Source: Candidatus Hadarchaeota archaeon | GTDB taxonomy: Archaea; CAYQAE01; CAYVLA01 | Direction of reading: 5' to 3' | Assembly (NCBI GenBank): GCA_964621445.1 | Contig: CAZUNO010000003.1 | Location: forward strand, 124,664-188,663 | DNA: 64,000 bases | Shown: one piece after another, positions 960 to 27,232 of the stretch | Numbering within the stretch: position 1 is the stretch's first letter | Layout: the number at the start of each line of letters is the position of its first letter | Notes under the pieces: model-generated | Seen by the model: the letters and a program-made list of their open reading frames with translations, nothing else | What the model was told of the DNA's origin: nothing | The model's database searches: none | Position numbers and translations under genes: made by a program

Positions 960-1076
960 CGGATGAAGTTAGGTTACCCGGTCTTATATTGGATTCCAGG
1001 AGGAACTTCCAGCGTCACCCAGCCGTCAACGGGGGCAGGAGAACATAATTATGCACATCCCATCACCCTGGAGATA

Positions 1077-10586: not shown

Positions 10587-11270
10587 TTGGATATTGGAAG
10601 GAGAAGGGACCTCCACATGCACACCATCCTTAGCGATGGAGGTATGATCGCCTCTGAGGTCGCTCGCAGGGCCGAGAACCTCGACCACGCATTGATAGCC
10701 ATTACCGATCACGTTGACAAGTCCAATATCGATATCTGTCTCTCGGGACTACTGGACGCTTTGGCCGACATCAATTCCCTATCTGAAATATCCGTGCTGG
10801 CCGGGGTGGAAATCACCCACGTTCCACCAGCGACCATAGATGAAATCGCCAGGCAGGCCAAGTATAAAGGGGCAAATATAGTGGTCGTGCACGGCGAAAC
10901 CGTGGCCGAGCCGGTCCAGCCGGGAACCAACGCCGCGGCCGTAAACTCCCCCTATGTGGATATCCTTGCCCACCCCGGCTTGATCTCTCCCGAAGTGGCT
11001 CAAACGGCCAGGGAAAACGAGGTTTACATCGAACTGACGGCTAAGGCAGGGCACGACAAGACCAACCCGCACGTAGCCAAGGTATGCCGCGAATGCGGTG
11101 CCAAGATGGTGGTAAATACCGACCTCCATTCTCCAGATGATTTCATCTCTCAAACGGAGGCACTGGAAATTGCGCTAGCGGCGGGCCTGGACAGAAAACA
11201 AGCCATTCAAACGGTAAGGGAAAATCCCATTGAGCTATCTAGTCGTGCTGCCCTTCATTTCCGTCGATAG
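10587..11270 (+). CDS. PHP-domain metal-dependent phosphoesterase
   Basis: 'DLHMHTILSDG' and 'ITDH' His-rich PHP motifs. Confidence 0.55.
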   Translation: MDIGRRRDLHMHTILSDGGMIASEVARRAENLDHALIAITDHVDKSNIDICLSGLLDALADINSLSEISVLAGVEITHVPPATIDEIARQAKYKGANIVVVHGETVAEPVQPGTNAAAVNSPYVDILAHPGLISPEVAQTARENEVYIELTAKAGHDKTNPHVAKVCRECGAKMVVNTDLHSPDDFISQTEALEIALAAGLDRKQAIQTVRENPIELSSRAALHFRR

Positions 11271-12612
11271 ACCGTAATAACCTCTTAACGATCCTACCTT
11301 TTTTAAGATCCGCCTTTTCCGCGCTTGTCCATAGGCTACTTCGCCTATTCTCTCTATCCCCGGCATCCACATCCACCACCCTCTTCACCTCGGTGTACGG
11401 GCTCTCCCTGAACCGGGGCAATAAACGCTTCTCCCCGGCAGGGCCTTGGATAAATACCTGGTCTCCCTCCACTTCTCCTATTCTTTTCGATTTAACCCCC
11501 ACTTCTTCTAGCTTAGCAATCAACGAGGCTGAAATGGAGGGTTTACAGAAGACGAGGAGGGAATCCAATGAAACCCCAAGAACGTCAACGCCCCGGTCCT
11601 CCAGTAGCTTCTTGACCCTCGGGTCTGGCAGGGAAAGTATTTTCGACTCATTTACCCTGGCCCCGTGACCGCATTCCTTGGCTATCTCGTGGAGATCGGC
11701 TCGAATACCTCCGTTGGTTACATCGGCCATGCAGTGGATTCCATCAACTAGTTCGCTATTCAAGATGGCCCTCGCGGCCACCAAAAAATCCACGTTTATC
11801 GTTTCCTGGACCACTTCCGGTTGGCCCGAATAAATTGCCGTGGTGCATATGGTTCCTCCTCCGGCACCCTCGGTCATTATTATGTCGTCCCCCCTTCGCA
11901 CATCCCTACGTGGGAAAAGACGTTCTGCACTTCCAAAAGCACTGACCCCTCCCGTTAGCCGGGAACCTATTACCATGTCCCCGCCGATTCTAAGAGTGCT
12001 TCCCCCCAGTACTGGGCAACCGATAACTTCACAGACCGAGCTAACCCCTGCCATGAACTCGAATAGCTTGGCTACATCCCCATCATCCGCGAGATGGAGG
12101 TCTACTAACAAGCCGCCGGGGGATGCCCCCTTCACATATAAATCCCGAAATGCGGCCCGGGTCACGTGGAATCCGGCCAGGAAGGGGAAATCGCTAAGCC
12201 TTGAATGCATTCCTTCCATCTTGACCACCAGATACCGGCCCTTATCGGTATGTATCGCCCCCGCATCGTCCATGTCCTGGGGGGAGAGAACGGCCGCGCC
12301 TCCGGTGTAGGAGAGGTCGCTTAAAATCTCATGAACGAAGAAATCACCGGTTCCCCTGCAGCCCACGCCCTGCTCACCCATGGTCACCCCTGATCTAGAA
12401 TAACCAATAACGCTCTCCTCCTGGTCCCCGGCAACAAGGCTGGCCTTGACCTCGGAGACGATTGCCCGGGCAATCCCTCGGGCCCTTTCCCGGTCAGTAT
12501 CCTTAAAATCCAGTATCTCACCGGTTAACCTGGTTATGATATCCTCTTCCCCAGTCTCCTTCGCCAACAGGTTACGAGCCAACCCTTCAAGATCCGCCAT
12601 TTTCATCACCAA
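11239..12612 (-). CDS. AIR-synthase-related (PurM-like fold) protein with N-terminal extension
   Basis: 457 aa; glycine-rich PurM-superfamily segments ('EGAGGGTICTTAIY', 'DVTNGGI'); exact family unresolved. Confidence 0.45.
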   Translation of the reverse strand: MVMKMADLEGLARNLLAKETGEEDIITRLTGEILDFKDTDRERARGIARAIVSEVKASLVAGDQEESVIGYSRSGVTMGEQGVGCRGTGDFFVHEILSDLSYTGGAAVLSPQDMDDAGAIHTDKGRYLVVKMEGMHSRLSDFPFLAGFHVTRAAFRDLYVKGASPGGLLVDLHLADDGDVAKLFEFMAGVSSVCEVIGCPVLGGSTLRIGGDMVIGSRLTGGVSAFGSAERLFPRRDVRRGDDIIMTEGAGGGTICTTAIYSGQPEVVQETINVDFLVAARAILNSELVDGIHCMADVTNGGIRADLHEIAKECGHGARVNESKILSLPDPRVKKLLEDRGVDVLGVSLDSLLVFCKPSISASLIAKLEEVGVKSKRIGEVEGDQVFIQGPAGEKRLLPRFRESPYTEVKRVVDVDAGDRENRRSSLWTSAEKADLKKGRIVKRLLRSIDGNEGQHD

Positions 12613-12692: not shown

Positions 12693-13568
12693 TTGGGCCT
12701 AAACTACCGGGAGGCAGCTTTGATAGATATTAGCAATTGCCGACCTGATCCTGATTTCAACGGTAAAACCTATGAGAGAATCGCGAGAACACTAAACCTA
12801 GATACCTATGCTGATCACGAAGCCACTCAAATTCTCCATTCCCTTATGATGGGCAGGGCAGAGGAATCCAGAAATGCCTTGGACCGGCTTGAAGAACTTG
12901 TAAACTCTAGACCTGCCTTCGTATTTGGGTGTGGACCTTCCCTGGATAACCATATCGCGGGATGCATTTCCTATCTGAGATCCGCAAAGGTGGTGACAAT
13001 AGCCGCCGATGGTGCAGCATCTGCCCTCATTGACAGGGAGGTCCTGCCAGATATCGTGGTTACCGACCTGGATGGAATACCGTCCGATATTTCCCTGGCA
13101 TCAAATAGGGGAACCATAGTACTACTACATGCACATGGTGATAACCTGAACTCGGTTCGGAGATGGCTGCCAAGAATCAACAACGTTATACCTGTGACCC
13201 AGACCGAACCGACGGACCTTGTTCACAACTTCGGAGGTTTCACGGATGGAGACAAATCAGTACATGTAGCCTGCCTGTTCGGTTGCTCGGCCTTGCTGCT
13301 TGCTGGAATGGACTTTGGAAACGAGGTGGGCCGATGGTCGTCTCCACAAGGCCCTCATGATGACCTTGGAATGAAACTGAAAAAGCTGGAAATTGGTAGT
13401 GAACTAACAGCCAGATGCATATCAGAATGTGGTGCACCTGTGTATTCACTCCCACCCAGCCCATTCGACTGGGTTCCTGAAATTGAGTGCCAGAGACTTC
13501 CCAAAATTTTGGGCGCTAGGAGAACGAGAGATGAAAGACAAGATGCTAATCGAAAAAATGATGCCTGA
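12693..13568 (+). CDS. mptE: 6-hydroxymethylpterin diphosphokinase MptE-like (DUF115)
   Basis: 'FVFGCGPSLD' and 'IVVTDLDG' DUF115 motifs; first gene of a pterin cluster. Confidence 0.5.
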   Translation: MGLNYREAALIDISNCRPDPDFNGKTYERIARTLNLDTYADHEATQILHSLMMGRAEESRNALDRLEELVNSRPAFVFGCGPSLDNHIAGCISYLRSAKVVTIAADGAASALIDREVLPDIVVTDLDGIPSDISLASNRGTIVLLHAHGDNLNSVRRWLPRINNVIPVTQTEPTDLVHNFGGFTDGDKSVHVACLFGCSALLLAGMDFGNEVGRWSSPQGPHDDLGMKLKKLEIGSELTARCISECGAPVYSLPPSPFDWVPEIECQRLPKILGARRTRDERQDANRKNDA

Positions 13569-14175
13569 AGGTTCGTTACAGGAGCTAATCCTGGTCTCAA
13601 TATCACAGGCTGGGAAAACCAACCTAGCACCAATAGGCGTTTGGAGCGATGATAAAGGGCTCTTGGCAAGGATTGGCCGCGAAACCCAGAGCATGCGTAA
13701 CTTGCTCAGCCGTCCTCAAGCCCGTTTTTGTGTGACCCTGAACCCGCTATTGATAGCCAAATCGGCGTTTAATCTTGATTGCCATGAATTTATCCTGGAT
13801 GATAGCAGAGGACTCCCCCAGATATCCGGTTCCGAAGCCGATATTCTGGTGGAGATGAAGAGCCATAGGGATTTCGTGAAGAGGGACCTGCTTGGGAATT
13901 CGCCCTTTGTAGAGGTGCTCTTCGAGGTAAAGGAGGTCAAGGTAAAAGGATTGCCTCGTCCCCCATCTCGTTCTCTTTGTGCGACCATCGACTCCATCAT
14001 AGGAATAACTAGGGCTAGGCTGGCTCTTGAAAGGGAACTGGAAATATATGAACAGCTGGCTAGGCAGGTAAGAGAAAATATTTCAAAAGCAAGGAGGTTA
14101 GGAACAAACCAGGAAGAGGAGGAGGCCCTCCAGCTGTGCGAGGAAGAGCTGAAAGATATGACTAGAGAGGAGTGA
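13531..14175 (+). CDS. hypothetical protein, possibly DUF447-like split-barrel flavoprotein associated with methanopterin clusters
   Basis: Track ORF starts at 13429 inside the previous gene; in-frame ATG at 13531 ('MKDKMLIEKMM') gives a compact junction. Family assignment weak. Confidence 0.3.
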   Translation: MKDKMLIEKMMPEGSLQELILVSISQAGKTNLAPIGVWSDDKGLLARIGRETQSMRNLLSRPQARFCVTLNPLLIAKSAFNLDCHEFILDDSRGLPQISGSEADILVEMKSHRDFVKRDLLGNSPFVEVLFEVKEVKVKGLPRPPSRSLCATIDSIIGITRARLALERELEIYEQLARQVRENISKARRLGTNQEEEEALQLCEEELKDMTREE

Positions 14176-15737
14176 GCATGAACATGCTCACTGATGAGGG
14201 GGGGAAACCGCTCATAATAACCGGAAGGATCTGCTATCCAAGTATAAGTAAACTCACGCGCGAATTTGAAATCTCCATTTATGAGGTACCGATCGACGTC
14301 GCGGCCTTACTCACGGCAAATGATGTCATCGATGCCATGAAGGATATTGACCTGGAGGAGATAAGCTACGTCATGCTACCGGGTATGTTCAGAGGAGACA
14401 TAGACGCCCTCCAGGAGCGCTTTCAGATACCGTTCTTTCTAGGTCCTACTAACTTCGTTGATATACCTCTAGTAGTAAGCGAAACCTCGATCGCCGAGCT
14501 ATCAAAGACGGTCCCCGCCGATAGGCAAATAGCAGACCATAAGCGGAAAGAGGTTCTTGGCTTCTACAGAGATGCACGCCGCAGGGAAAACCAATGGCAA
14601 GGGGAACCTCTCATTATTGGTCATGATGATAATGGGGTATCCATAGGGAGAGGGTGCCCACCTGCACTGGTTGCCGAGGTCGTTGATGCACCAAGGAAGG
14701 ATGTCAAGGACATCCTAAAGGAATGCAGGCACTACCTTGAATCCGGAGCAGATATCATAGATATGGGGATGATTCCTCGGGAGGATAACTCGAAATGGAT
14801 CACATCAACAATACCCGAGATTAAGGCCGAAATCCAGGCGGCCATCAGTATAGACACAATGTCAGAGAAAGAGATCTTGGCTGCGAACGATCACCAAGCG
14901 GATCTTATTCTAAGTATCTGTGGAAGCACCATTGATTTAGTCCCCAGCATCGACCTGCCCTTTGTGCTAGTTCCCGTTGATGATCCCCAAAGCAAACCCC
15001 CTGATTCCAGCCAAGCCAGAGTAGAGAAGCTAAAATCCTACCTAAAACTCATCGGTAACCGGAATGTAATCCTTGACCCTTTACTGGCACCAATAGGAAC
15101 TGGATTCTATTCATCCATTAAATCGTATTTAAAACTGGAGGAGGAACTCCCGAAATTTCCATCATTAATGGGGATAGGAAATGTTACCGAATTAATCGAT
15201 GTTGATTCCATTGGCATCAACGCAGTGCTCGCTGCTTTGGCGCTCAAGGCAAACACGTCATTGATCTTAACAACGGAAAACAGCCAAAAATGTAGAAACT
15301 CGTTATCGGAGCTCAGCACAGCTTTAGCGATGATCTATTACTCACAACAGAAAAAAATAGTCCCAAAAAACATGGGCCTTAACCTCCTTCGCTACAAGGA
15401 AAAGAGGAAAAGGATTGATCCCACACCTCTAGCAAAACCTGAAATCAAGGCAGGAAAAGGAAAGCAAAAAACGGATATTGATAGGAATATAAAGTTCCAC
15501 ATTTTACTAAGGAACAAAAGAATTCATGTACTGAGGGAGGGAGAGGGAGATAAGATCCATCTTTCGGGGAATTCCGCCATGGACATCTGCTTTGAGCTGG
15601 ATAGGCAAGAACTATTGCCGGGACCAGCCCATTCCGTGTATTTAGGAAGGGAGCTGGCAAAGGCAGAGACCGCGCTAAAGACCGGCCGTAGCTACATCCA
15701 GGACCAGAACCTATTCACTGAGGTTGATGAGTCTTGA
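14172..15737 (+). CDS. mptH: dihydropteroate synthase-like pterin-binding protein with C-terminal extra domain (MptH-like)
   Basis: Pterin-binding TIM-barrel features ('GADIIDMG', 'ISIDT'); C-terminal 'GDKIHLSGNSAMDICFELDRQ' resembles the extension in archaeal DHPS-like proteins. Confidence 0.5.
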   Translation: MSMNMLTDEGGKPLIITGRICYPSISKLTREFEISIYEVPIDVAALLTANDVIDAMKDIDLEEISYVMLPGMFRGDIDALQERFQIPFFLGPTNFVDIPLVVSETSIAELSKTVPADRQIADHKRKEVLGFYRDARRRENQWQGEPLIIGHDDNGVSIGRGCPPALVAEVVDAPRKDVKDILKECRHYLESGADIIDMGMIPREDNSKWITSTIPEIKAEIQAAISIDTMSEKEILAANDHQADLILSICGSTIDLVPSIDLPFVLVPVDDPQSKPPDSSQARVEKLKSYLKLIGNRNVILDPLLAPIGTGFYSSIKSYLKLEEELPKFPSLMGIGNVTELIDVDSIGINAVLAALALKANTSLILTTENSQKCRNSLSELSTALAMIYYSQQKKIVPKNMGLNLLRYKEKRKRIDPTPLAKPEIKAGKGKQKTDIDRNIKFHILLRNKRIHVLREGEGDKIHLSGNSAMDICFELDRQELLPGPAHSVYLGRELAKAETALKTGRSYIQDQNLFTEVDES

Positions 15738-16729
15738 AAACTGGAGTTCGGGTTAAAACCGGTCCAAGACTCCATTTCGGCTTGTTAGACCTATCCGGTG
15801 ACATGGGCAGGGTGGACGGTGGAATCGGCATGGCCCTTCAGGAACCTTCTCTGGTCATCCAGGGTAGGAGATCGAGTTCCACGAAAAGCAACAAGTTCTC
15901 TAAACTGGTTGAGTATGCGGTTGACGCTCTAAACAAGCATTATGATAAAAATTACAGCCTCGATATCCAGGTAGATCGATCTTACCCCCAGCACGTGGGA
16001 CTGGGATCCACCACCCAGATCCTCCTCTCAATCTCATACATCTACAACTTAATTTTCGGACGAACACATAACTCGCGAGAAATGGCCAATTTGCTAGGGC
16101 GAGGTGGAACATCCGGGATTGGGGTAGCATCCTTTCGATCAGGAGGCTTCATACTTGATGCAGGTCATACCTTTGGTCATAACGGTGAAAAGAATACATT
16201 CCTGCCGTCGAGGGTTTCTAATTGTCCTCCTGCACCCGTTCTCTTTAGGCATCGCATTGCATCTGACTGGGTCGTTGATCTACTCGTACCCCTTGATTCC
16301 CCAGGCCTCTCCGGTAGACCTGAAGCCGAATTCTTTCAGAAAAAATGCCCAATTCCTCGGCCAGAAACCGATAGGATATCTAGAATAGTATTATCAATTA
16401 TCCTTCCAAGCGTTATTTCATCTGATATTAAACGCTTTTCTAAAGGCATTAACCTACTTACAACGTTGGGATTCAAGTATCTAGAGATACAAAACCAATC
16501 TGAATACGTAAGGAATCTAATTTCCGATATTAAACTGGTTACTAAAAATCAAGCAGCAGTTGGTTTAAGTTCATTTGGTCCAACCGTTTTTGTTATAAGT
16601 AAAAATAATTTAAGAATGAAATTCATTGATAAATTAAAGGATCACATATCGTATATACAATCACAACATGGAGTTACTTACTACGTAACAAGGTGTAGAA
16701 ATATTGGGGCTACTGTAAATGTATGGTAG
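15734..16729 (+). CDS. mptG: beta-ribofuranosylaminobenzene 5'-phosphate synthase-like (GHMP kinase fold)
   Basis: N-terminal 'RLHFGLLDL' and GHMP 'GLGSTT' motif. The last 350 nt are markedly AT-rich relative to the rest of the gene. Confidence 0.55.
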   Translation: MKTGVRVKTGPRLHFGLLDLSGDMGRVDGGIGMALQEPSLVIQGRRSSSTKSNKFSKLVEYAVDALNKHYDKNYSLDIQVDRSYPQHVGLGSTTQILLSISYIYNLIFGRTHNSREMANLLGRGGTSGIGVASFRSGGFILDAGHTFGHNGEKNTFLPSRVSNCPPAPVLFRHRIASDWVVDLLVPLDSPGLSGRPEAEFFQKKCPIPRPETDRISRIVLSIILPSVISSDIKRFSKGINLLTTLGFKYLEIQNQSEYVRNLISDIKLVTKNQAAVGLSSFGPTVFVISKNNLRMKFIDKLKDHISYIQSQHGVTYYVTRCRNIGATVNVW

Positions 16730-16917
16730 TTATCTTCATTGTTTGATTGTTTGACAAAGGAAACAGAACAACCTGAAAGAGGGGTACTATTGAGTTTTGT
16801 TTGATCGTTTGAATGATTATAGTTGTAGCTCCGATGGATATCTTGGAAAAGAGCATTTTCCCACCTGGTTTAGTTTTTTGTTTGTGTATGTTTGTTCAAA
16901 TGTTCAAATGGATTGGG

Positions 16918-18018
16918 TTATCCCTTTTTGAAGGCTCTGGTAATATCTTTGGAGAGAGTGTACTTGTTTTTTCTCCCGACTTTTTCCACTTGAACTGCTC
17001 CCATGTTACGTAACCTGTTTAGTTGGGTGTTTATGCTACCGTAGTTGTCAACGTCGAGTTCATCTAGCACATCCTTTATGAAGGCACCGTCGGGATAGTC
17101 AACAAGGGCCTGGATTATCTCACTTTGTTGTGGTGAGTATCTTTCTAGGATCTGTTCTCTCATTGGGCCCGTGTCCTTCTTCTTTCCTAGGTAATCAGCG
17201 ACCAGATCGGCATCTATAACATCTTTCCCTGACCTAATAGTCTGGAAGACTAATTGAGCTGCTATGGTTAGAGTATCCCTGGGTACCCCGTTTGAGTGTG
17301 CATGGATCTGTTCTATCGCCTCGTCTGTGAAGGGAAGGCCATCCTCTACTTCCTTCTCACCCCTGGCCCATGCTATTCTCCTGTAGATAAGTTCCTTTGT
17401 TTCTTCTAGGTCGAATGCCTCGAGGTAGATACGCATCTTTATTCGATCCTCGAGCGGAGGAACTTTCTTCCTGATGGTGTCTAGAGCATCTTCAGTTCCC
17501 GCGAACACTATGGACCCGCCGGCATCGTGTAGGGTTCTCACCCATCGGGCAGCTGGTTCGGATATTTCCTGGAATTCGTCGATTAAGATAACGATGTTTT
17601 CTTGTTGTAGGTGTTGTGTTATGTTTGTTGCAATTCTGTCTAGCTCTAGGGCCCTGTTTCTGGAAAAGATGGAGGATAGTCTTTCCAGGATGGAGGGTGA
17701 GTGAACGTTTTGATGTATGTGCCGGAGCATTTCGTCGTGGGTAAGGGGTTTTTCTATTAGGATTACCTTTCCGCCATTTTCCTTGCGAAGCATGTAGTGA
17801 AGCTTCTTTAGAAATGCGCTTTTACCATATCCTATGGGGGAAAGAATGGATACCATGCCCTGGTTATGTTGAAGCATGAAGGTTGCTTGGTTAAGTTCCT
17901 CTTCGTATCTGGGAACATAAACGAATTCATTGGGTAAAGGAGTATTCAGAATAAAGGGTTCTCTTCCGTGAGTCCAGCCTTGTTTGTTATAGAACTCCTC
18001 TGTTATGTTGGTGTTCAA
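16918..18018 (-). CDS. AAA+ ATPase with C-terminal winged helix (archaeal ATPase/AAA_22-like; Orc1-like not excluded)
   Basis: Walker A 'SPIGYGKSAFL', Walker B 'ILIDEFQ', C-terminal wHTH-like 'NRLRNMGAVQVEKVGRKNKYTL'; sits in a low-GC, GT-skewed island. Confidence 0.5.
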   Translation of the reverse strand: MNTNITEEFYNKQGWTHGREPFILNTPLPNEFVYVPRYEEELNQATFMLQHNQGMVSILSPIGYGKSAFLKKLHYMLRKENGGKVILIEKPLTHDEMLRHIHQNVHSPSILERLSSIFSRNRALELDRIATNITQHLQQENIVILIDEFQEISEPAARWVRTLHDAGGSIVFAGTEDALDTIRKKVPPLEDRIKMRIYLEAFDLEETKELIYRRIAWARGEKEVEDGLPFTDEAIEQIHAHSNGVPRDTLTIAAQLVFQTIRSGKDVIDADLVADYLGKKKDTGPMREQILERYSPQQSEIIQALVDYPDGAFIKDVLDELDVDNYGSINTQLNRLRNMGAVQVEKVGRKNKYTLSKDITRAFKKG

Positions 18019-18019
18019 T

Positions 18020-18563
18020 TTCTACCACTGAGGTGCGTGCCTTAAGGATCGTCTTGTGCGGGTAAACCTAAACATCACTCTAACGTTTGCTGAACATAGA
18101 TAACGTACGGCTTCCAATAATTGATAGGCAAATCTCGTTCTAATAAAGCTTTTTGTTTTATTTGTTGGCCCATGTTTTAGTTGTTGTTGCGCTCTGATCA
18201 GAAGTTGTATGAATAGTTGGGTTTGTTGTTATTGTTGGGGTGCTTTGGTAGGCAATTTTGATAGGCCTGGATATATCCAAAAGCAGATGATAATGATTTC
18301 GTTTGGTTTGTTGGTCTATTGTGTTCCTTCCGTTATGCTTGAATGTTTGGTGGGGTTTAACTCAGAGACCGTTGTTGGTCTTGTTGGAGTTAGTTATTGC
18401 TTACGTTAGGAGTTTGTATATGTTTGTTATTGATACGTTTACCTGTTAGCTGAACCGTTTATTGATGCGGTATAGTTGTTAGGCAGGTTTGAATTTGTTT
18501 GTTTTGGTGTTATTGGCGGTGGATAATGGCTGTTTAATTTGTTGATTTGTTATTAAGCGTATG
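18020..18563 (+). other. 544-bp non-coding stretch with strong G+T skew on the plus strand and a recurring 'gttattg' motif
   Basis: Only low-complexity ORFs; base composition unlike flanking coding DNA. Confidence 0.4.
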
Positions 18564-19493
18564 TTATGCTTTAGCTCGACCTATTAAATGGCGGGAAATT
18601 GCGCCAGTTACGTCAACTCCGGATGCCCTAGCGGTTGCTTCAAATGATGGAGAAGGGTTAACTTCAAGTAGCTTATGCCCTTCGGAAGTATCAAGAATGT
18701 CTACGCCGGCAATATCTAGATTAAGTACTTCTGAAGCCTTAATAGCGTCTTCAGCCATCTCAGCGGGTATATATTGTTTATCCAGCGCCTCTGCGGTGGC
18801 ACCAAGGGATATATTATGCTTGTATATGGAGCCCTGTCGCTTTATTGCAGCGATGATTTCATTACCAACAAGCAGTATTCTAATATCATATGAGGAAGGA
18901 ATGTAGGGCTGGATCATGGCGGGTTGTTTGTTCATATGAAAGAGGGAAAGGGTGTCTCCTAAACAAACATCATCCTTAGCTAACATAACACCAATCCCAC
19001 CAGCGCTTTGAAGGGCCTTGATTACACAGGGGGAATGGATAGTTGAGTTTGTTATATGTATGTTACGTATGGGGTTTGGTGATACGAAAAAGGGAACTAT
19101 TGGTAAATCATTTTTAGATAGAATGGAGAGACAAAGATGCTTCCTGGCGCTTAGATATATGGAACGCGGATGGTTAATAACGGGGACTTGTTGAGAGGCA
19201 ATCCACATGGTCTCAAAAAAGAATTGGAAACATCTAGGACCGTATTCCTCAAGCCATGAAGATATGGGCCTTTGGAAAATTAGATCAAAGGAGGAAAATG
19301 ACATGTTTTCAACTTGGCCGTAAGCTAGGTCATTTAGGTCTGGAGAAGGGCCTGAACCGGTTTGAGGATGATTGATTAGGGAGAGCCAGGTGTCATTTGG
19401 ACTGAAAACATCAAATTCGATGCCCAGGGAATTGAATTTTGGGGCAAAAAGGGATACTTCCTTTTTGTTTTTTGGAAAGTAGGCTATCCTCAT
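18564..19493 (-). CDS. RimK-family ATP-grasp alpha-L-glutamate ligase (MptN/CofF-like)
   Basis: ATP-grasp C-terminal core ('VNPSPSFE', 'DIAGVDILD'); 309 aa is typical of RimK-type ligases; AT-rich codon usage. Confidence 0.55.
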   Translation of the reverse strand: MRIAYFPKNKKEVSLFAPKFNSLGIEFDVFSPNDTWLSLINHPQTGSGPSPDLNDLAYGQVENMSFSSFDLIFQRPISSWLEEYGPRCFQFFFETMWIASQQVPVINHPRSIYLSARKHLCLSILSKNDLPIVPFFVSPNPIRNIHITNSTIHSPCVIKALQSAGGIGVMLAKDDVCLGDTLSLFHMNKQPAMIQPYIPSSYDIRILLVGNEIIAAIKRQGSIYKHNISLGATAEALDKQYIPAEMAEDAIKASEVLNLDIAGVDILDTSEGHKLLEVNPSPSFEATARASGVDVTGAISRHLIGRAKA

Positions 19494-20085
19494 TGGAATT
19501 CCCTTTGATTTTATGTTATGACTTGTAGCATAACAAGAAGGGGGGGAAAAGTTATATGTGTTGTTATGATTAGAATAATGGAGTAAGAAAGGGGTTGGCT
19601 GATAACGGCAAGGTTAGAGATTTGGGTTAATAACAATAGGGGGTAAATGGGGAAATTACAAATAAATATTAATAAGATTGATTCCAAAAGTTATTAATCA
19701 TTTTATTCAGCATTGGAATTAGAAGCCAGAAATGCGTTCATGAAGATATGAGATGACATTAATCCTGTATCTGGGACGTTGGAGATTATCATTTGCTAAA
19801 TAAAGAAATCTAAGGGCCTGGCCTGCCGGTTACGGGCATTAATTGTAAATCATAATAAGTCTCAAAAAGGGGGGTGGAAACGGAAAAAAAGAAAGAGGCA
19901 TCTCGAAAAGGGGCAAAAGGGGGGTGCTAGTGTAACTATATATGAATTAGGGCTGCAATAAGGTTTAATTAAAAAAATGGACAGCTATGGGGGCATAAGA
20001 GGAGTAATGGGAAGCAAAAAGGGGTTTGATGGGTAATAAGATGGGTGTTAGGAGGGGGTCAAGGATGCAGGATTATTTCTAATAC
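19494..20085 (+). other. 592-bp purine-rich non-coding region with G runs
   Basis: No ORF of 60 aa or more in any frame; A+G-rich on the plus strand; lies between the ATP-grasp gene start and the mfnB-like gene end. Confidence 0.4.
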
Positions 20086-20793
20086 TCAAATTAGGGTTTC
20101 TTTGAAACGATCAACCCTATGTGCCGTTATTTTACCGTTACGCCGGTCGTTAGATTGACAGGCAGCACCTCTGATACCTATAACATCTGGTGATAATGTT
20201 TTGAGTTGTTTAGAGTGATTCAGATTTAGGGAGCCGGCCAGGGCGGAGATCATATCCATTTCCTGGAGGTGGGAGATAAATGAACAGAGTTCATCATAAG
20301 CCATGAAGTCAAACAAACATCTACCATCTTTGTTTATTGTGTCGATAAGGACCCCATCAGCTCCAGATTGGGATGCCGCCTGGAGTAGGACCAGGGGGGA
20401 AATGGACCCAACAAGTTCCCAGTCGGCGTAGCCACAGGCTATTACCTTAATCGAGGGATCGATTGATTTAACGATATCAACGGAGGGGGTGAGTAGGGCT
20501 TGGGCCTCGGATTGGGTTTTTGTACCAAAGAGACCAAGCTTAACGTAATCCGGTGAAAGATATGCCGCCCCGGCGGCTGCCAAGCTGACGGTTCCGGGAA
20601 GATTTGGGAGATCACCTATAGCACAACTGGTTTCACTTGTTCCGTTTACGGCATCGATAATCCTAGAGGCCTTCTGGGGAGTTGGGGCTCCAAGAGAGCC
20701 CTCCGCGGGATTCTTTATGTCAACAATGTCGGCGCCACCCGAGATGGCTTCTGGCACCTCTTCCTCGTCTACAACGCTGACTAGTAACCTCAT
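20086..20793 (-). CDS. mfnB: (5-formylfuran-3-yl)methyl phosphate synthase MfnB-like (DUF556)
   Basis: 'MRLLVSVVDEEEV...GGADIVDIKNPAEGSLGA' and 'DVIGIRGAAC' closely match my recollection of M. jannaschii MfnB. Confidence 0.65.
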   Translation of the reverse strand: MRLLVSVVDEEEVPEAISGGADIVDIKNPAEGSLGAPTPQKASRIIDAVNGTSETSCAIGDLPNLPGTVSLAAAGAAYLSPDYVKLGLFGTKTQSEAQALLTPSVDIVKSIDPSIKVIACGYADWELVGSISPLVLLQAASQSGADGVLIDTINKDGRCLFDFMAYDELCSFISHLQEMDMISALAGSLNLNHSKQLKTLSPDVIGIRGAACQSNDRRNGKITAHRVDRFKETLI

Positions 20794-21464
20794 GATGTGA
20801 TGGTAGAGGATTCGCTATAAATATGAGTTCCATACGTTCGGCCGTTAACCAAAAGCTGATGAATTCGTTTTGGGTGGTGACCATTTACAATCCATGCCTC
20901 AAGTCCATGTTTCCTAAGAATAATCGGGAGATATTCGTCTACCAGGGATTGACGGTGACCGGAGAGGTCCTTTGCTGTGAGGGATTTGATGATCTCTTTG
21001 GATTTTTGATTCGTCAGCCCATCAACAGATTTTAATAGAAGCAATTTGGAGTTTAGGGTATTGGCTAAATAAGCGGAGATTGTATCGGAGGTCACTTCCC
21101 AGCTTTGGGGAAGATCTGATTCCTTGATAGGCGAGTAGGGAAGAAAAATGGGGATCGGTTTGCCGGGTTCCGGCTTTGGCTGCGTCGATAGGCTAAAGTA
21201 ATTCGGCCAGCTAGATTCAATACAATAAGCGTTGAGGTGCATGGCAAGGATTGCCAGCCAGTGAGAACCTCTATTCCCAATACTGTAGTTATGCCCCAGT
21301 TTTCTGATTAGATCTGCATAGGAGCCCCCACCCGCTACAGCCGCAATATCTTTTATCTTATGGACATTCCAAAGCTCGCCGACTATTTCTTCCAGTATCT
21401 CACTTGCGTCATTTATGAGACTTCCACCGATCTTCACGACCCACATTACTTGGCCATCCTCCAT
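20790..21464 (-). CDS. amino-acid-kinase-family small-molecule kinase (MfnE-like)
   Basis: 'VVKIGGSL' N-terminal kinase motif and 'AVAGGGS'; 4-bp overlap with mfnB-like suggests co-translation. Confidence 0.45.
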   Translation of the reverse strand: MEDGQVMWVVKIGGSLINDASEILEEIVGELWNVHKIKDIAAVAGGGSYADLIRKLGHNYSIGNRGSHWLAILAMHLNAYCIESSWPNYFSLSTQPKPEPGKPIPIFLPYSPIKESDLPQSWEVTSDTISAYLANTLNSKLLLLKSVDGLTNQKSKEIIKSLTAKDLSGHRQSLVDEYLPIILRKHGLEAWIVNGHHPKRIHQLLVNGRTYGTHIYSESSTITS

Positions 21465-22582
21465 GCCTCAATCGAAAGTGAAACCGCTGGAGCTGTAGTG
21501 CAAACCTCCTTTTCCAGGCCGGCAACATCCATGTTGAGTTCCTGGTTCACGAAATTTTGGAAGGGGATAGGTGTTTTTAATCCGGTCTTTAGGGCGGCTG
21601 GTTTGGCAAGACATTCAGAGCCGCTTCCCGCGATAATACAGGGAATCTCTGTCCCGAGTTTGGCTCTGTTGAGAACAAAGCCGATGGACTTCTCCACCCT
21701 TTCAATCTGTCTATTGCGAACCGAGACGGCGATTTCTCGGATCTGGTTCCCATTAAGCTCTTGAAGGTCCGAGCACACGACTCTGGCCAGTCTTCTCATG
21801 CAGGCGGTAAGGTTTGTTCCCTTGCCATCAGCTGTAGGTCCGCCGTAATCACCTGGACCTAACAGACCGAGAATTATGTTGACATCGCCCATAGTTGCAA
21901 ATTCCTCTGAAGCGCAGGGGATTTCACTACCACCCAAATTCACCGAGTCCACTACTGTGGCTACGTTGGTCCTAGTCGAACCGGTGTATACCAGTTCCCG
22001 ATTCTTGAGTCTACCTCTGTCCGTTGGGTCATTGACAGCTGGACGTCCAGATAGGATGGGGATTATATCGGTGGTGGTTGATCCCGAATCTATTAGCAAG
22101 GACTGGGAGTGAGCTCTCCCTATCAGCAAGGATGTTGGGACCCAATTTGCTGCGGCGACTTCCAATGGGCGGGATATTGCTGTTTTGCCCTTAACCACCG
22201 ATCCCGAGTTTAGGATGATTCTGGTTTCTGGCTCCTGTTCTAGGAGACTAGAAAGAACGAATTCTACTCCCTGCTTTTTTGATTGGAAGCAATCCGCGAG
22301 CTCCGCCGTCATGGTGGCCAAGGTTAGATGTGGGACAGCCTGGTAGGGCTCCAATAGCTTCTGAACTAATTTGGGGAAAGAGCGGTAGTTCTTCCAAAAT
22401 GGATGGTAGATTGATTTTAGGTCACGGATTTCGAGCCCCTCTCCCCCATTTGAGGTTACTGCAATTTTGGTGTTTGCACCGCCAATATCTAACCCGATTG
22501 CTAGCATTTGATGTGCCTCTCTGATAGCCATTTCTTTACACGGGCAAATCGTTGAGGTATCTCCATGGAGTCCTTGGCCCAA
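21446..22582 (-). CDS. hydantoinase/ASKHA-fold protein of the H4MPT-linked C1 family (MfnF-like)
   Basis: 'LAIGLDIGGANTK' ASKHA phosphate-1 motif; the real start may be the internal M near 22528. Confidence 0.45.
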   Translation of the reverse strand: MGQGLHGDTSTICPCKEMAIREAHQMLAIGLDIGGANTKIAVTSNGGEGLEIRDLKSIYHPFWKNYRSFPKLVQKLLEPYQAVPHLTLATMTAELADCFQSKKQGVEFVLSSLLEQEPETRIILNSGSVVKGKTAISRPLEVAAANWVPTSLLIGRAHSQSLLIDSGSTTTDIIPILSGRPAVNDPTDRGRLKNRELVYTGSTRTNVATVVDSVNLGGSEIPCASEEFATMGDVNIILGLLGPGDYGGPTADGKGTNLTACMRRLARVVCSDLQELNGNQIREIAVSVRNRQIERVEKSIGFVLNRAKLGTEIPCIIAGSGSECLAKPAALKTGLKTPIPFQNFVNQELNMDVAGLEKEVCTTAPAVSLSIEAWRMAK

Positions 22583-23685
22583 ACACAGGTCAATACCTTG
22601 CTTTTTCCCTTCATATAGTAGGGACCCACAGGAAATGGTGGGGAAACTATCATCTTACTTTGAAACATCTTCTGGTGGATTGATTGGTCAAATGGGACGG
22701 TCCGGATTAAGGGTAGTATGGACCATTTTGAAAAGCCCTCAGTATCAACAGCGGTTTTCTCCCCGGTGATGATCGATGCCAATCCTTTCTGGATTATCTT
22801 TTCTATACCTATACATGATGTGGTCATCCTGGGATTTATCTCCATAAAATGAGCCTTGCCCTGACTATATACAAAGTCTAGGGTCATCAGGCCCTTAAGC
22901 TTGCTCTTTGTTACCATGGAGGAGATATCATCCCAAAGCCCACGAACGGGAAGGGGGAATGGGCTGGAACCACCCAGGTATTCAAGCTCTTGAGAAGCCT
23001 GGATGGCTTGGGTGTTAATTGCAAGAGGAATTACCTCGCTTTCCATGGCCATGAAGGTCGCACTGAGGTGGCGTCCCTGCTTGAATTCCTGAATAATGGC
23101 AGAATTCCACCCGGAGCTCCTTAATTTTGCAGCTGCGCGTCTGCAATCGCTATTGCTTCTAACTATGGTTGTGCCCTCGCATCCAGCCCCGTCAGGGGGT
23201 TTTATAACCAGGGGTAAACCCATTTTGGGGATTGCCCTGGATATTTCCTTGGTAGTAGATTCAGTGGTTAAGGTTCTGGGCACGGACAGGAAATTGCATT
23301 GCTGGTCGACTAATTCAAATGAAGAGGGCTTATTCGCCAACCGGGAAACCGTTCCCGAGGGGCAGCTCAACAATTCCGTTTCCTGCTCAATGGCACGAGT
23401 GAGCTCGAGGAGTTTTCCGCCTGATTCTGGAGCAATTATGAAAGCGGCGTCGAAGCTAGATGAAGTCTCTGGGAGCTCTTCCATTGGGTTTTCCCGGGGA
23501 AATACCAGATCATAGATCGGTAAAAAACCGGCCTCTCTCTTTAAACTCTTATTAACTGCGGCGGTAACCTCGTGACCATCCTTTTTGAAGGATTCACATA
23601 ACGTCCGGAGCATGCCGAACCCCTGTGGCAGAATGCTTCTCGGCCCGCCCTTGAGTGATGTCCATTCCGACAGGAGGAGCTTCAT
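22501..23685 (-). CDS. ATP-grasp ligase (MfnD-like, tentative)
   Basis: 394 aa; ATP-grasp core ('LPLVIKPPDGAGCEGTTIV', 'MEINPR'). Confidence 0.4.
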   Translation of the reverse strand: MKLLLSEWTSLKGGPRSILPQGFGMLRTLCESFKKDGHEVTAAVNKSLKREAGFLPIYDLVFPRENPMEELPETSSSFDAAFIIAPESGGKLLELTRAIEQETELLSCPSGTVSRLANKPSSFELVDQQCNFLSVPRTLTTESTTKEISRAIPKMGLPLVIKPPDGAGCEGTTIVRSNSDCRRAAAKLRSSGWNSAIIQEFKQGRHLSATFMAMESEVIPLAINTQAIQASQELEYLGGSSPFPLPVRGLWDDISSMVTKSKLKGLMTLDFVYSQGKAHFMEINPRMTTSCIGIEKIIQKGLASIITGEKTAVDTEGFSKWSILPLIRTVPFDQSIHQKMFQSKMIVSPPFPVGPYYMKGKSKVLTCVWAKDSMEIPQRFARVKKWLSERHIKC

Positions 23686-23734
23686 GGCTACGCATTTAAT
23701 AGCGGACTTCTTTTAAATCTGGTGAGCTGGGACC

Positions 23735-24448
23735 TTGAGAATCATTCCCGTTCTGGATATTCTTGATGGAAAAGTTGTAAGGGGTGTTGCTGGTAATCGG
23801 AAGAGGTACAAGCCGGTCACCAGTTCCATAACCGATTCAGTTCATCCGGTGCAGGTTGCCCGGGATCTCCTTGACATTCACACCTTCCGGGAAATCTACA
23901 TAGCCGACCTCGACGCTATCGAGGGCAGGCCCGACAACAGGGAGCTTGTGAAAGAAGTATCTGAATTGGGCTGCCAGGTTTACCTCGACTCCGGAATTAC
24001 GGGTCCGGGGGACATTGACCCGGATTACGAAATCAACCACCTGGTAGCTGGAACCGAGACCCTGGATTCATTGGAGGTCTTGGCAGAGATCTGTCAGATG
24101 CACCCGTCTGTAGTTTCCAGCTTGGATTACAAGGGAGATGACCTGCTTTGCCGAGAGGAAAGCCTGAAACATATGAAACCCCGAGAGCTCGTCGCCAGCG
24201 TATGCGCTGCAGGCGTTTCGGAGATCATCTACCTGGACCTGGCTCGGGTTGGAACCGGTTCCGGTGTAGTATGCGAGAGAGTTGAGATGGTCATAGAAGC
24301 GTCCGAGGTACCGGTGATCGTGGGAGGCGGGATTAGGAATGCATCCGATATTCGATCCCTTGATGAGGCTGGGGCGGATGGTGTTTTGGTTGCGAGCTGC
24401 GTTCACTCAGGTGAGTTGGATGAAGGGGACCTAGAGGGTTTGACCTGA
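23735..24448 (+). CDS. HisA/HisF-family TIM-barrel protein (paralog associated with cofactor clusters)
   Basis: 'RIIPVLDILDGKVVRGV' and C-terminal 'VIVGGGIRNASDI' phosphate-binding motifs of the HisA/HisF fold. Confidence 0.55.
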   Translation: MRIIPVLDILDGKVVRGVAGNRKRYKPVTSSITDSVHPVQVARDLLDIHTFREIYIADLDAIEGRPDNRELVKEVSELGCQVYLDSGITGPGDIDPDYEINHLVAGTETLDSLEVLAEICQMHPSVVSSLDYKGDDLLCREESLKHMKPRELVASVCAAGVSEIIYLDLARVGTGSGVVCERVEMVIEASEVPVIVGGGIRNASDIRSLDEAGADGVLVASCVHSGELDEGDLEGLT

Positions 24449-25425
24449 TGATATCTAAGGCTCTTTATGAACTCATTAGGGGCCTCTCTGCTGGACCCTA
24501 CCAGGATTCTGTGGTATGAGCGGTTTCCGGAGACCCTTTCCAATATACCTTTACATTGAACCATTTCGCCACTGCGTGCCTGCCCAACGTAGGTATGGGT
24601 ATAGGACACGATTTCCGATATCTCAAATCCCGAATATTCACATTTCTCAACCTTGTATATCGCCGGGTAATCATAGGCCCTATTAGCATCTCTCACCATG
24701 CATTCAGCTCGGGCCTGTTCAATCCTCTGGTATCTTAAGTCTCCGAAGGATCCGGAGATCTCATGGGGCTTCCGGCAGGAGAGCAGGTCAAACCTTACAT
24801 CGCCCAGCTTAGCCCGATTGAATTTTCTGGTCTCGTGCCAGACGAATTCCGCGAAGGAATAATCCCCATTTGCTTCAATACCTCTTTTGGAATAGATATC
24901 CTTCCAATCGGTTCTGCCCAGTGCTGCGATTCTGTCCTCGGTAATGGCTCTCTTTACCGAGTTAACTGTCTTGGAAAGGTTATCTAGCCCGTACACGACC
25001 AGGTCAACATCCGAGCTGGTATTCTGGGCGCCGATAAGGTAGGACCCGGTAATTCCCATGTCATCCAGCGACAGATTAGATTCGGAAATGATTATTGATA
25101 CGATATCCGATACTATAGGAGCCGTCCCCCGTTCAAGCAAGTCCTTTAAGGCAGGACCGGGCATGTAATGCCTCTTGATCGAGGATCTTGGAACGATCGT
25201 AAGTTTTCGGTCAAATTCCGGCCGAAAATGGACGTAGTTAGGGGCATGTTTTTGTAGATACAGGCGTGATTCCTCGCTCGATTCAAACTTATGAATATCC
25301 CCACACTCTCTTCTGTAACGAAGCTGGGATACAACGCCGGAAATTGGATGGTTGAATAGGAGAACGGAGAAAATCAGACCATCCTTGGTTTCAATGAAGT
25401 CCCTTACCCGGTACATGCGATTCAC
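24403..25425 (-). CDS. nucleotidyltransferase-domain protein (Pol-beta superfamily), function unknown
   Basis: 'GITGSYLIGAQNTSSDVDLVVYG' fits the G[GS]...D.D nucleotidyltransferase signature. Confidence 0.3.
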   Translation of the reverse strand: MNRMYRVRDFIETKDGLIFSVLLFNHPISGVVSQLRYRRECGDIHKFESSEESRLYLQKHAPNYVHFRPEFDRKLTIVPRSSIKRHYMPGPALKDLLERGTAPIVSDIVSIIISESNLSLDDMGITGSYLIGAQNTSSDVDLVVYGLDNLSKTVNSVKRAITEDRIAALGRTDWKDIYSKRGIEANGDYSFAEFVWHETRKFNRAKLGDVRFDLLSCRKPHEISGSFGDLRYQRIEQARAECMVRDANRAYDYPAIYKVEKCEYSGFEISEIVSYTHTYVGQARSGEMVQCKGILERVSGNRSYHRILVGSSREAPNEFIKSLRYHQVKPSRSPSSNSPE

Positions 25426-25479: not shown

Positions 25480-26160
25480 GTGATTGCTGGAATTGTGCCC
25501 TGCAAGGGACTGAAAAATGGGAAAACTAGGCTTGATCTTCCACCTGAACTTGGGAGAGAAAAGAGGGAGCTAATAATATCAATGTTTGATCGGGTTCTAA
25601 AAGCGATGGTGGAAAGCAGGCTGGAGACGGTCTATGTAGTGAGCCCTGACGAAGGCATCCTTGAGCATGGTTCCGCTTTGGGAGCGCGGACAATTCTTGA
25701 ATACAATCCCTCGGGGGCCAATTCCGCTGTTGAGCTGGCTAATAAAAAAGCGATTAAAGACGGCTTTGAGGCAACGCTCGTTGCTTTTTCGGACATTCCT
25801 CTTATCTCGAAGCGGGACCTAAACGGAATACTGGACTTGATTATTGAGTCTAACAGATGCGTGGCCGCGCTCCGTTCAAGGAGGGGGGGAACGAACCTTC
25901 TATTGCGGAAACCTCCTTCGGCAATACCATCTCGATACGGGAAAAACAGTTTTATCAAGCATCGCGATGAGACAATGCAGAATAGAATTCCCTTCTTTGA
26001 GTATGTGAGCAACCCGGCGTCCCTCGATGTAGATACGATATCCGATTTGAGGCTCTTGTTTCGGGGTGAGAGGTCGGCAGGGAATGAGTTGGAAAAAGAA
26101 GAACAATTTCGAATCTCACAAAGGATCACGGAGGCATTAGATTGGCGAAGTCGAGAATAG
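25480..26160 (+). CDS. cofC: MobA-like nucleotidyltransferase, CofC-like (2-phospho-L-lactate guanylyltransferase family)
   Basis: N-terminal 'MIAGIVPCKGLKNGKTRL' and 'AFSDIPLI' resemble CofC/MobA-type guanylyltransferases. Confidence 0.4.
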   Translation: MIAGIVPCKGLKNGKTRLDLPPELGREKRELIISMFDRVLKAMVESRLETVYVVSPDEGILEHGSALGARTILEYNPSGANSAVELANKKAIKDGFEATLVAFSDIPLISKRDLNGILDLIIESNRCVAALRSRRGGTNLLLRKPPSAIPSRYGKNSFIKHRDETMQNRIPFFEYVSNPASLDVDTISDLRLLFRGERSAGNELEKEEQFRISQRITEALDWRSRE

Positions 26161-26347: not shown

Positions 26348-26821
26348 TCAATGAAAAATTTTCACAAAGGCCATCAGGGAAAATGTCAGTACTAGCAATA
26401 GTGATAAAACGAGGCTCATCTCTCCCATGCCCAGTAGGGGGGTTAGGCATATTCCAGCAACCATGAGAGGCACGAGGCTAAAAGCCAATTTACTCGCACT
26501 GTATCTCCCCAGCCATTGCGAGACGTGTTTGAATTCGTGTTGGATAACATATGGATCATCGACGGAGAGGATTCCCCAACCGACGAAAGAGTAGCCTGAG
26601 ATCTCGATCGATTTCTGGCCAAGGAAATCCCTGTTTTTCTTTCTCTCGAGTTTATTTATCTCAATATCCCTGCTGCAAATGTAATTTCCCTGGCCTGTTC
26701 TGGGTTTCATTATCAGGGCAGTTGGTTTCCCATATATAATCGATAGAAGGCAAGCAAGGCAGAGAAAGGGGAAATATACGGCATGGGCAATTGCCCAGGA
26801 AACGGTCCTGGGAAAGGTCAT
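26348..26821 (-). CDS. putative membrane zinc metallopeptidase (HExxH motif)
   Basis: 157 aa with TM segments at both ends and 'VIQHEFKHV'. Confidence 0.3.
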   Translation of the reverse strand: MTFPRTVSWAIAHAVYFPFLCLACLLSIIYGKPTALIMKPRTGQGNYICSRDIEINKLERKKNRDFLGQKSIEISGYSFVGWGILSVDDPYVIQHEFKHVSQWLGRYSASKLAFSLVPLMVAGICLTPLLGMGEMSLVLSLLLVLTFSLMAFVKIFH

Positions 26822-26902
26822 AAGAAGCGGTTGGAATGGAAGGTGTACTAATTTGGGAGTAAATTCAAGATTTTGCTTTGCCGCGGAGTTGGTTTTGCTC
26901 AG

Positions 26903-27232
26903 TTACTTCTCTTCCTCCAGCGGTGCACCTGCATAGCTTGCTGCGGACAGCCTTTCTCCCTTTCGAATGCCGAAAAGCTTCATCGTCCGTTCATCGATGC
27001 CAATGGAGTTGGCGGGGAGGTAATCATCCTCAACGGCCTTGACCAATAGGGTTCCTCTCTTACCGATAATCTCTATGGTACCGCCGGGCATGATCTGTAG
27101 CCTCTCCAGGTCCTCTCCTCTCATCTTCACCGTGTTGATCCAATCCACCGGCTGGGCTTCGATGTTGATTACGCCTTTCTTTTCCTCCTCCTCAGACATT
27201 TCCATCTCCCGGTAAATGTGGGCGCTTCTCAT
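26903..27232 (-). CDS. hypothetical protein
   Basis: 109-aa ORF with coding-like composition; no recognisable motif. Confidence 0.3.
   Translation of the reverse strand: MRSAHIYREMEMSEEEEKKGVINIEAQPVDWINTVKMRGEDLERLQIMPGGTIEIIGKRGTLLVKAVEDDYLPANSIGIDERTMKLFGIRKGERLSAASYAGAPLEEEK

Follow-up and report, generated by a model that had tools for sequence, protein, structure and literature searches.

The 64-kb stretch of contig CAZUNO010000003.1 analysed here (the window) carries genes assigned to methanopterin and methanofuran biosynthesis side by side, with pterin-branch genes on the plus strand at 12.7-16.7 kb and furan-branch genes on the minus strand at 18.5-23.7 kb. This arrangement had been proposed in an original prediction, made from the sequence alone, for positions 12693-25425. 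The genes named in it were all found in place by an open reading frame (ORF) map and hidden Markov model (HMM) scans, from which the gene calls derive, and for each of them the expected family was the best match in HMM and structure-sequence searches. Stop/start overlaps of 4 bp in the ORF map at 14172-14175, 15734-15737 and 20790-20793 indicate two operons. The genes of these operons, together with a HisA/HisF paralog, are as follows.

12693-13568, plus strand: MptE-type 6-hydroxymethyl-7,8-dihydropterin diphosphokinase (PF01973, 96 bits, cut-off 34.6)
13531-14175 (longest ORF from 13429), plus strand: DUF447 protein, homolog of the uncharacterized MTH_863 (PF04289)
14172-15737, plus strand: MptH-type enzyme resembling dihydropteroate synthase, MJ0301 family (TIGR00284; DUF6513, Pterin_bind and DUF4346 domains)
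15734-16729, plus strand: MptG, beta-ribofuranosylaminobenzene 5'-phosphate (beta-RFAP) synthase (TIGR00144, 255 bits, cut-off 113.5)
18564-19493, minus strand: RimK-family alpha-L-glutamate ligase (PF08443, 100 bits; TIGR00768, 126 bits)
20086-20793, minus strand: MfnB, 4-HFC-P (furan ring) synthase (PF04476, 246 bits)
20790-21464, minus strand: MfnE-like kinase with amino-acid-kinase fold (best NCBIfam match NF040622, MfnE)
21446-22582, minus strand: MfnF-like coupling enzyme, Hydantoinase_A (TIGR03123, 271 bits, cut-off 244)
22501-23685, minus strand: MfnD-like ATP-grasp protein, tyramine-glutamate ligase family (ATP-grasp_3 and preATP-grasp_3)
23735-24448, plus strand: HisA/HisF paralog, MJ0703 / bacterial Orf17 family (TIGR00734, 152 bits)

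Pterin and furan operons

The protein assigned as MptE combines a PF01973 domain with similarity to a characterised archaeal enzyme, the solved 6-hydroxymethyl-7,8-dihydropterin pyrophosphokinase PDB 8sd5 (127 bits); its true start may lie downstream of 12693. MptH aligns to positions 4-497 of the 497 in TIGR00284 with all three Pfam domains present and scores 256.6 bits against a cut-off of 256.65, and a PDB search gave no solved relative. MptG scores above the cut-off of its family, which has a GHMP-kinase fold, and contains the motif GPRLHFGLLDL, in the stretch ...GPRLHFGLLD19LSGDMGR26VDGG..., where both D19 and R26 are conserved. These two residues are needed for activity and for binding of p-aminobenzoate (pABA), and the enzyme of Methanothermobacter is inactive or weaker when they are replaced (PMC6787355). 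The DUF447 protein matches the structure of MTH_863 (PDB 2ptf) at 45 bits, and no role for DUF447 in methanopterin synthesis was found in the literature searched. In the predicted pathway, MptG would couple phosphoribosyl pyrophosphate to a 4-substituted benzoate and MptE would make the pterin diphosphate, which MptH would join to beta-RFA-P to give the core of a methanopterin-type pterin.

On the minus strand, MfnB matches the MJ1099 structure (PDB 4rc1) end to end, with 197 bits across residues 1-232, and keeps D25, K27, K85 and D151, the catalytic residues described for MJ1099. The genes for the MfnE-, MfnF- and MfnD-like proteins lie next to that for MfnB within one operon, and each of these families is the top specific match of its protein. 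The MfnE-like kinase matches NF040622 over its full length (117 bits, cut-off 300) and PDB 7qrh at 96 bits. TIGR03123, which the MfnF-like enzyme matches best, is named 'probable H4MPT-linked C1 transfer pathway protein' (H4MPT, tetrahydromethanopterin; C1, one-carbon), and the MfnF model NF040623 comes second with 195 bits (cut-off 520). The best NCBIfam match of the MfnD-like protein is the MfnD model NF040722, with 72 bits (cut-off 400).

The HisA/HisF paralog had been listed in the original prediction with pterin and furan genes alike; its presence stands, and its place can be narrowed by analogy with bacteria. Bacterial Orf22, Orf21 and Orf9 correspond to MfnB, MfnE and MfnF (Hemmann et al. 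2021, PMC8141765). Orf17, a HisA/HisF homolog with 26% identity to MJ_0703, is essential for methylofuran, and an orf17 mutant still made methenyl-dH4MPT (PMC8141765). Because the minus-strand block and the HisA/HisF gene together make up the bacterial methylofuran set, the paralog is placed in the furan branch. MfnD, MfnF, MfnE, MfnB and the HisA/HisF paralog would build the methanofuran core, and the RimK-type ligase would probably build its glutamyl tail.

For the ligase, the original prediction was right about presence, and the analogy with bacterial MyfB points to the furan branch rather than to MptN. Orf5/MyfB is a RimK/MptN-like ligase, 33% identical to MptN, which elongates the glutamate chain of methylofuran, and the archaeal enzymes for further glutamylation of methanofuran are described as still unidentified (PMC8141765). 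If the ligase were MptN, it would add glutamate to H4MPT and yield tetrahydrosarcinapterin. The MptN model is indeed its second-best match, with 103 bits across nearly the full length, and the gene sits between the two operons, a position conserved in three related contigs (L002, L005 and L087). However, the MptN model has a cut-off of 350, far above these 103 bits, the generic RimK model TIGR00768 scores higher (126 bits), and the gene shares its orientation with the furan operon. An MptN identity is thus possible but rather doubtful, and a glutamyl ligase that, like MyfB, serves the furan cofactor is somewhat more likely.

Judging from its gene content, the host is an archaeon. Its genes in the window include those for the archaeosine enzyme RaSEA, a PUA protein of arCOG04150 and a UMP kinase (pyrH) of archaeal type. 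A tRNA of 97 nt at 35834-35930 (plus strand) was found with Rfam (55.8 bits) and missed by ARAGORN, which suggests an intron, probably of archaeal type. The closest homolog of MptG, at 93%, is on a Logan contig of 1.3 kb, and the next ones are at 43-54%. Among the latter, the match at 51% comes from a contig with the title 'uncultured Thermococci archaeon', and those at 48% and 45% are found under 'Candidatus Hadarchaeota archaeon'. The gene order of the whole island is kept in four independent contigs (L001/L003, L002, L005 and L087) at protein identities of about 45-60%, which argues that the juxtaposition is not due to chance. Very probably, the region is a conserved island that serves cofactor biosynthesis in an uncultured archaeon, composed of a methanopterin operon and a methanofuran operon. 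The individual reaction steps are modelled on the enzymes of Methanocaldococcus jannaschii and Methylorubrum. As a cofactor island it adds little that is new; many non-methanogenic archaea, Hadarchaeota-like ones among them, were already known to have H4MPT and methanofuran genes (PMC5020050, PMC10811742).

Several results weigh against this interpretation. The scores with the NCBIfam equivalog models for MfnB (236 bits, cut-off 304), MfnE, MfnF, MfnD, MptN and HisAF, and with the stricter MptG model NF040726 (284 bits, cut-off 328), are all below cut-offs that were trained on methanogens. This marks the proteins as orthologs that have diverged from the enzymes of methanogens, of which they are no close copies, and the assignments do not extend to exact substrate specificity. 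No MptA, MptB, MptD or dihydromethanopterin reductase (DmrX/AfpA) was found in the 64 kb by profile scans of the window and tblastn with Asgard MptA, DmrX and DUF1464; their genes may be located in other parts of the genome. Profile scans of the window likewise detected no MfnA-type decarboxylase and no MfnC-type aminotransferase, as stated in the original prediction, and none of fae, fwd/fmd, ftr, mch, mtd, mer, mtr or mcr. Finally, the collinearity with L087 includes genes that are unrelated to cofactors (a PUA protein, an FtsX-like permease and a methyltransferase), so synteny within the clade alone says little about the peripheral genes.

The original prediction went on to an H4MPT-dependent C1 metabolism. 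As the window holds no enzyme of a C1 pathway, it is plausible and unproven that the cell runs C1 reactions dependent on H4MPT and methanofuran. Methanopterin-type pterins can act as a general folate substitute in archaea, and the pterin of this locus could be such a 'modified folate', as reported from archaea that are not methanogens, for serine, glycine and purine metabolism, in which case the locus would be no sign of a pathway of the Wood-Ljungdahl or methanogenesis type. The lack of C1-pathway enzymes is in line with this, as are the beta-RFAP synthase homologs that PMC6787355 mentions in non-methanogenic Sulfolobus species. The H4MPT methyl branch does occur in Hadarchaeota, which speaks for C1 use, yet reportedly only a single family within them has it (PMC10811742). 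On the other hand, a full set of MfnB, MfnE, MfnF and MfnD accompanies the pterin genes, and the gene for CofC, of F420 biosynthesis, is adjacent. To our knowledge, methanofuran has no role other than as the formyl carrier of formylmethanofuran dehydrogenase and Ftr/Fhc. A folate substitute without C1 pathway is considered improbable; in the preferred explanation, the cell would run C1 reactions that use both cofactors.

Genes linked to mptG and mptH

The functional island is larger than the span in the original prediction, with a probable start near 10 kb at genes resembling chorismate lyase and AIR synthase. The genes that flank the two operons or lie between them are listed below.

8712-10001, plus strand: AsnB-like PP-loop ATPase (PF00733, 101 bits)
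9979-10551, plus strand: DUF98 / Rv2949c-like chorismate pyruvate-lyase homolog (PF01947, 98 bits; PDB 2nwi, 93 bits)
10587-11270, plus strand: PHP-family phosphatase (NF004981, 274 bits)
11239-12612, minus strand, divergent from the methanopterin operon: AIR-synthase-like (AIRS-like) ATP-dependent enzyme of the PurM superfamily (PF00586 and PF02769)
16918-18018, minus strand: P-loop ATPase (AAA_22/ATPase_2) with C-terminal ArsR-like winged helix, from profile scans
24403-25416 (also given as 24403-25425), minus strand: uncharacterised Pol-beta-type nucleotidyltransferase with C-terminal OB fold, from motif alignment and an AlphaFold2 (AF2) model
25480-26160, plus strand: CofC-type guanylyltransferase of F420 biosynthesis (TIGR03552, 118 bits, cut-off 105; PF01983, 87 bits)

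About 20 of the top 120 MptG homologs, from Methanofollis, Methanomicrobiaceae and others, are fusions of beta-RFAP synthase with the DUF98 domain, and in 16 methanogen loci the domain is adjacent or fused to mptG. Such a Rosetta-stone link agrees with a route that has been reported (White 2011, as given in PMC3261824 and PMC8141765), where 4-hydroxybenzoate enters in place of pABA and PurB turns beta-RFSA-P into beta-RFA-P. The DUF98 homolog is thus a putative supplier of 4-hydroxybenzoate for the arylamine part of methanopterin.

The AIRS-like protein has the N- and C-terminal AIRS domains, a PurM-like fold and a DDAG-type ATP motif, as expected in the PurM superfamily, and by score it falls in none of the HypE, SelD, ThiL and PurM families. 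Its AF2 model is about equally distant from all four, with Foldseek E-values of 1e-21 to 1e-14 and 17-20% identity. Compared across phyla, it is among the better-conserved proteins of the island, with 47-53% identity to proteins from Asgard archaea. Invariant residues are numerous in the alignment; DDAGA and the N-terminal loop GVGCRGxGDFxVH belong to them. The gene adjoins mptG in six genome loci, and loci with both genes come from Baldr-, Heimdall-, Hod-, Wukong- and Promethearchaeota as well as Bathyarchaeia. In the complete genome of the cultured Promethearchaeum syntrophicum, genes for MptH, a flavoprotein, DUF1464, DUF447, DHNA aldolase and MptG follow one another in this sequence, and the AIRS-like gene is divergent from that for MptG.

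The link was also approached from the other side, with 80 metagenome loci picked solely for the AIRS-like gene. mptG is present in 43 of them and at least one methanopterin-linked gene in 54; where at least 3 kb of sequence was available on both sides (28 loci), these numbers are 23 and 26. The distance between the AIRS-like gene and mptG is at most 300 bp in 19 of the 43 loci that have mptG. Among the top 120 matches to the protein, all named ones are archaeal except one, on a 6.7-kb contig of a metagenome-assembled genome labelled Candidatus Deferrimicrobium. No role for this family in methanopterin synthesis was found in the literature searched, and its gene neighbourhoods suggest that it is a core gene of the methanopterin cluster in many archaea.

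The gene at 24403-25425 lies within the span of the original prediction and was not described there. Its domain architecture is new. Pfam gives only a marginal match to NTP_transf_2, and GxTGS...SDIDLVVY, the signature of Pol-beta nucleotidyltransferases, is invariant in 39 aligned homologs. The protein belongs to the Pol-beta nucleotidyltransferase superfamily, which is defined by a G[GS]...DxD catalytic motif on the nucleotidyltransferase core fold, and it is not an ATP-grasp protein; its AF2 model has a pLDDT of 94. No full-length relative was found in the PDB, where the matches cover single domains. A homolog follows MptH, or MptH and MptA, in eight loci of Asgard and related archaea. In Baldrarchaeum the order is DUF447, MptG, DUF1464, flavoprotein with Fer4, MptH, GCHY-1 cyclohydrolase (MptA), nucleotidyltransferase and a second nucleotidyltransferase paralog. 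The named bacteria among the top 120 matches are all methylotrophs, methanotrophs or Nitrosococcus halophilus, the last of which is cited as having a full set of H4MPT and methanofuran genes (PMC5020050). In Methylococcus (L083) and N. halophilus (L169) the gene is located outside the H4MPT islands, and the bacterial evidence is therefore only phyletic.

Outside methanopterin operons, homologs of this nucleotidyltransferase are paired with a small upstream ORF, the end of which overlaps their start. The upstream ORF encodes a 164-aa Flavin_Reduct protein in Methylococcus (L083 7517-9663), where a HAD phosphatase follows, and a 187-aa unknown protein in N. halophilus (L169 8438-9981). In an archaeon (L085 9603-10990) its product has 132 aa and belongs to the AF_0155 family.

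The remaining flanking genes are less firmly tied to the pathway. The AsnB-like protein keeps the PP-loop SGGIDS but starts with MPSIF and has no N-terminal Cys nucleophile; its gene is translationally coupled to the DUF98 gene and adjoins the cluster only within the close clade. It could perform chemistry analogous to that proposed below for the AIRS-like enzyme, as in argininosuccinate synthetase, and a link to the pathway is uncertain. The PHP phosphatase gene is syntenic in the clade and occurs near DUF98-mptG in one further locus (L064); it is a possible enzyme for a dephosphorylation step, with a weak link to the pathway. CofC keeps its place beside the nucleotidyltransferase within the clade (L002 and L087). 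That it might be a methanopterin-specific paralog was considered and rejected. As it passes the CofC equivalog cut-off and, beyond the clade, never occurs close to mptG or to an AIRS-like gene, it is treated as an enzyme of F420 biosynthesis.

It could be asked whether the AsnB-like, PHP, AAA_22-winged-helix, CofC and nucleotidyltransferase genes are neighbours of the operons through collinearity only and have nothing to do with the cofactors. The chance of this is considerable, if a little short of even, since collinearity reaches clearly unrelated genes in L087 and no AsnB-like, AAA_22 or CofC gene was found beside mptG outside the clade. For the nucleotidyltransferase, however, as for the AIRS-like, DUF98 and DUF447 genes, linkage to the pterin genes extends across phyla.

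No assigned gene was found in the literature searched for three parts of the methanopterin pathway: formation of the arylamine from 4-hydroxybenzoate, formation of the ribitol, and assembly of the side chain. The chorismate-lyase-like and AIR-synthase-like genes most likely feed the arylamine branch. In PurM-superfamily enzymes, ATP phosphorylates an oxygen and a nitrogen nucleophile then displaces it. On this ground it is reasonable to propose the AIRS-like protein as a candidate for the step from beta-RFH-P to beta-RFSA-P, which depends on ATP and aspartate. In the proposed scheme, the DUF98 homolog would supply 4-hydroxybenzoate. The AIRS-like enzyme would activate the phenol of beta-RFH-P with ATP and couple aspartate to it (the 'phenol to aniline' step), by O-phosphorylation and subsequent attack of nitrogen in parallel to PurL, and PurB would then cleave beta-RFSA-P. 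Alternatively, the AIRS-like enzyme might act on the archaea-specific phospho-hydroxyglutarate tail. For bacteria, an association between pabB and the pathway is reported (PMC3615186). The mostly archaeal distribution of the AIRS-like protein fits an archaea-specific step, and it fits the tail equally well. The nucleotidyltransferase-OB protein may catalyse a late side-chain step that is common to methylotrophic Gammaproteobacteria. That the island pins down the AIRS-like and nucleotidyltransferase-OB proteins as the enzymes of steps without an assigned gene remains tentative and is, on balance, rather unlikely.

The linkage of these two genes to mptG and mptH holds across archaeal phyla, including a cultured Asgard archaeon. 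The island can be regarded as a compact and unusually complete map, with known Mpt and Mfn genes beside a few strongly conserved enzymes that are uncharacterised. Its candidates open the missing steps to expression and assay, and it adds a candidate for the archaeal glutamyl ligase of methanofuran.

Inter-operon ATPase and other features of the window

The AAA_22-winged-helix gene is located between the two operons in all relatives and is the most conserved gene of the island, with 71-83% identity compared with about 45-60% for the cofactor genes. A PDB search gave no solved relative. The protein is possibly a regulator. A replication origin formed by this gene and the AT-rich gaps was considered and rejected, as there is no Cdc6/Orc signature, no PDB relative and no ORB-like repeats. 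The cumulative GC skew over 1-30000 has its minimum near 12-13 kb and then rises, largely independent of gene orientation, and no origin-like features were found near this minimum.

Two non-coding gaps of about 550-600 bp (18018-18564 and 19493-20086) flank the RimK-type gene. They have a GC content of 0.39-0.41. Their strand skew is strong, with GC skew values that reach +0.39; the minus strand is rich in A/C in one gap and in C/T in the other. L002, L005 and L087 have kept gaps of comparable length. When three genomes were aligned, only a short TATA/BRE-like block, TTAATAAC...TATTA, was conserved. Neither an RNA family (Rfam) nor clear repeats were found in the two gaps, and a scan for sigma-70 promoters and intrinsic terminators gave chance level, as expected for an archaeon.

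The sole aminotransferase in the window is an ArgD-type class III enzyme at 27274-28461 (minus strand; TIGR00707, 476 bits). It might be considered as a substitute for MfnC, yet it passes the cut-off of the ArgD family. Downstream of its gene, at 26348-27232 (minus strand), are two small ORFs, and synteny with L087 covers all three positions. A membrane-like protein of 157 aa, 67% identical in L002, is encoded by one of the ORFs, and by the other a protein of 109 aa with weak matches to double-psi-barrel families (Molydop_binding/CDC48_N).

Elsewhere in the window, 873-4994 (plus strand) encodes a large single-chain PurL (FGAM synthase; TIGR01735, 1733 bits), where archaea more usually have split PurL/PurQ/PurS. 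A probable extracellular protease of giant size, 3045 aa, is encoded at 46875-56012 (minus strand); it has peptidase C25 (gingipain-like), BACON, FG-GAP, InlB-B-repeat and Ig domains. Three PIN-domain ORFs close together in the region 59182-62644 (59182-59574, 60084-60527 and 62270-62644) are probably toxin-antitoxin modules.

Comparison with known systems

The genes of M. jannaschii belong to the same protein families as those of the island and have the same domain architectures, and the active-site residues of beta-RFAP synthase are kept. The reference tags are MJ1427 for MptG and MJ1099 for MfnB; the corresponding tags are MJ1634 (MptE), MJ0301 (MptH), MJ0815 (MfnD), MJ0458 (MfnE) and MJ0840 (MfnF). 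The island differs in that most scores are below the equivalog cut-offs and MfnA, MfnC, MptA, MptB and MptD are not part of it. The Mpt and Mfn genes are dispersed in M. jannaschii, whereas they are gathered together here.

Methylotrophic bacteria likewise have pterin and furan genes adjacent to each other in islands. They share with the archaeal island the furan set Orf22/MfnB, Orf21/MfnE, Orf9/MfnF, Orf17/HisA-HisF and the RimK-type ligase Orf5-MyfB. Examples of the bacterial arrangement are orf19-orf20-afpA-orf21-orf22 (as in Methylosinus), mch-orf5-orf7-fae-orf17 and orf9-mtdB (PMC3615186, PMC8141765). The bacterial islands also hold fae, mch, mtd and fhc, none of which is in the archaeal island; this in turn adds the DUF98 and AIRS-like genes.

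Asgard archaea offer a further parallel to the pterin branch. In the methanopterin operons of Baldrarchaeum (L006), Heimdallarchaeota (L008), Jordarchaeales (L061) and P. syntrophicum (L170), genes for the AIRS-like protein, DUF447, MptG, MptH and nucleotidyltransferase-OB are clustered, and DUF447 adjoins mptG. These operons have additional genes for DUF1464, a flavoprotein with or without Fer4 (DmrX/AfpA-like), MptA or MptD, and a second nucleotidyltransferase paralog. DUF166 was also observed, together with DUF1464, the flavoprotein and two nucleotidyltransferase-OB paralogs (L006 7118-17413; L008 8019-16006; L170 3416-10368). DUF1464, DUF166, the flavoprotein and the nucleotidyltransferase-OB paralogs of these operons, absent from the window, are further candidates for the pathway. 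The Asgard operons are without Mfn genes, and it is only in the present clade that the pterin genes of this type stand beside those of the furan branch.

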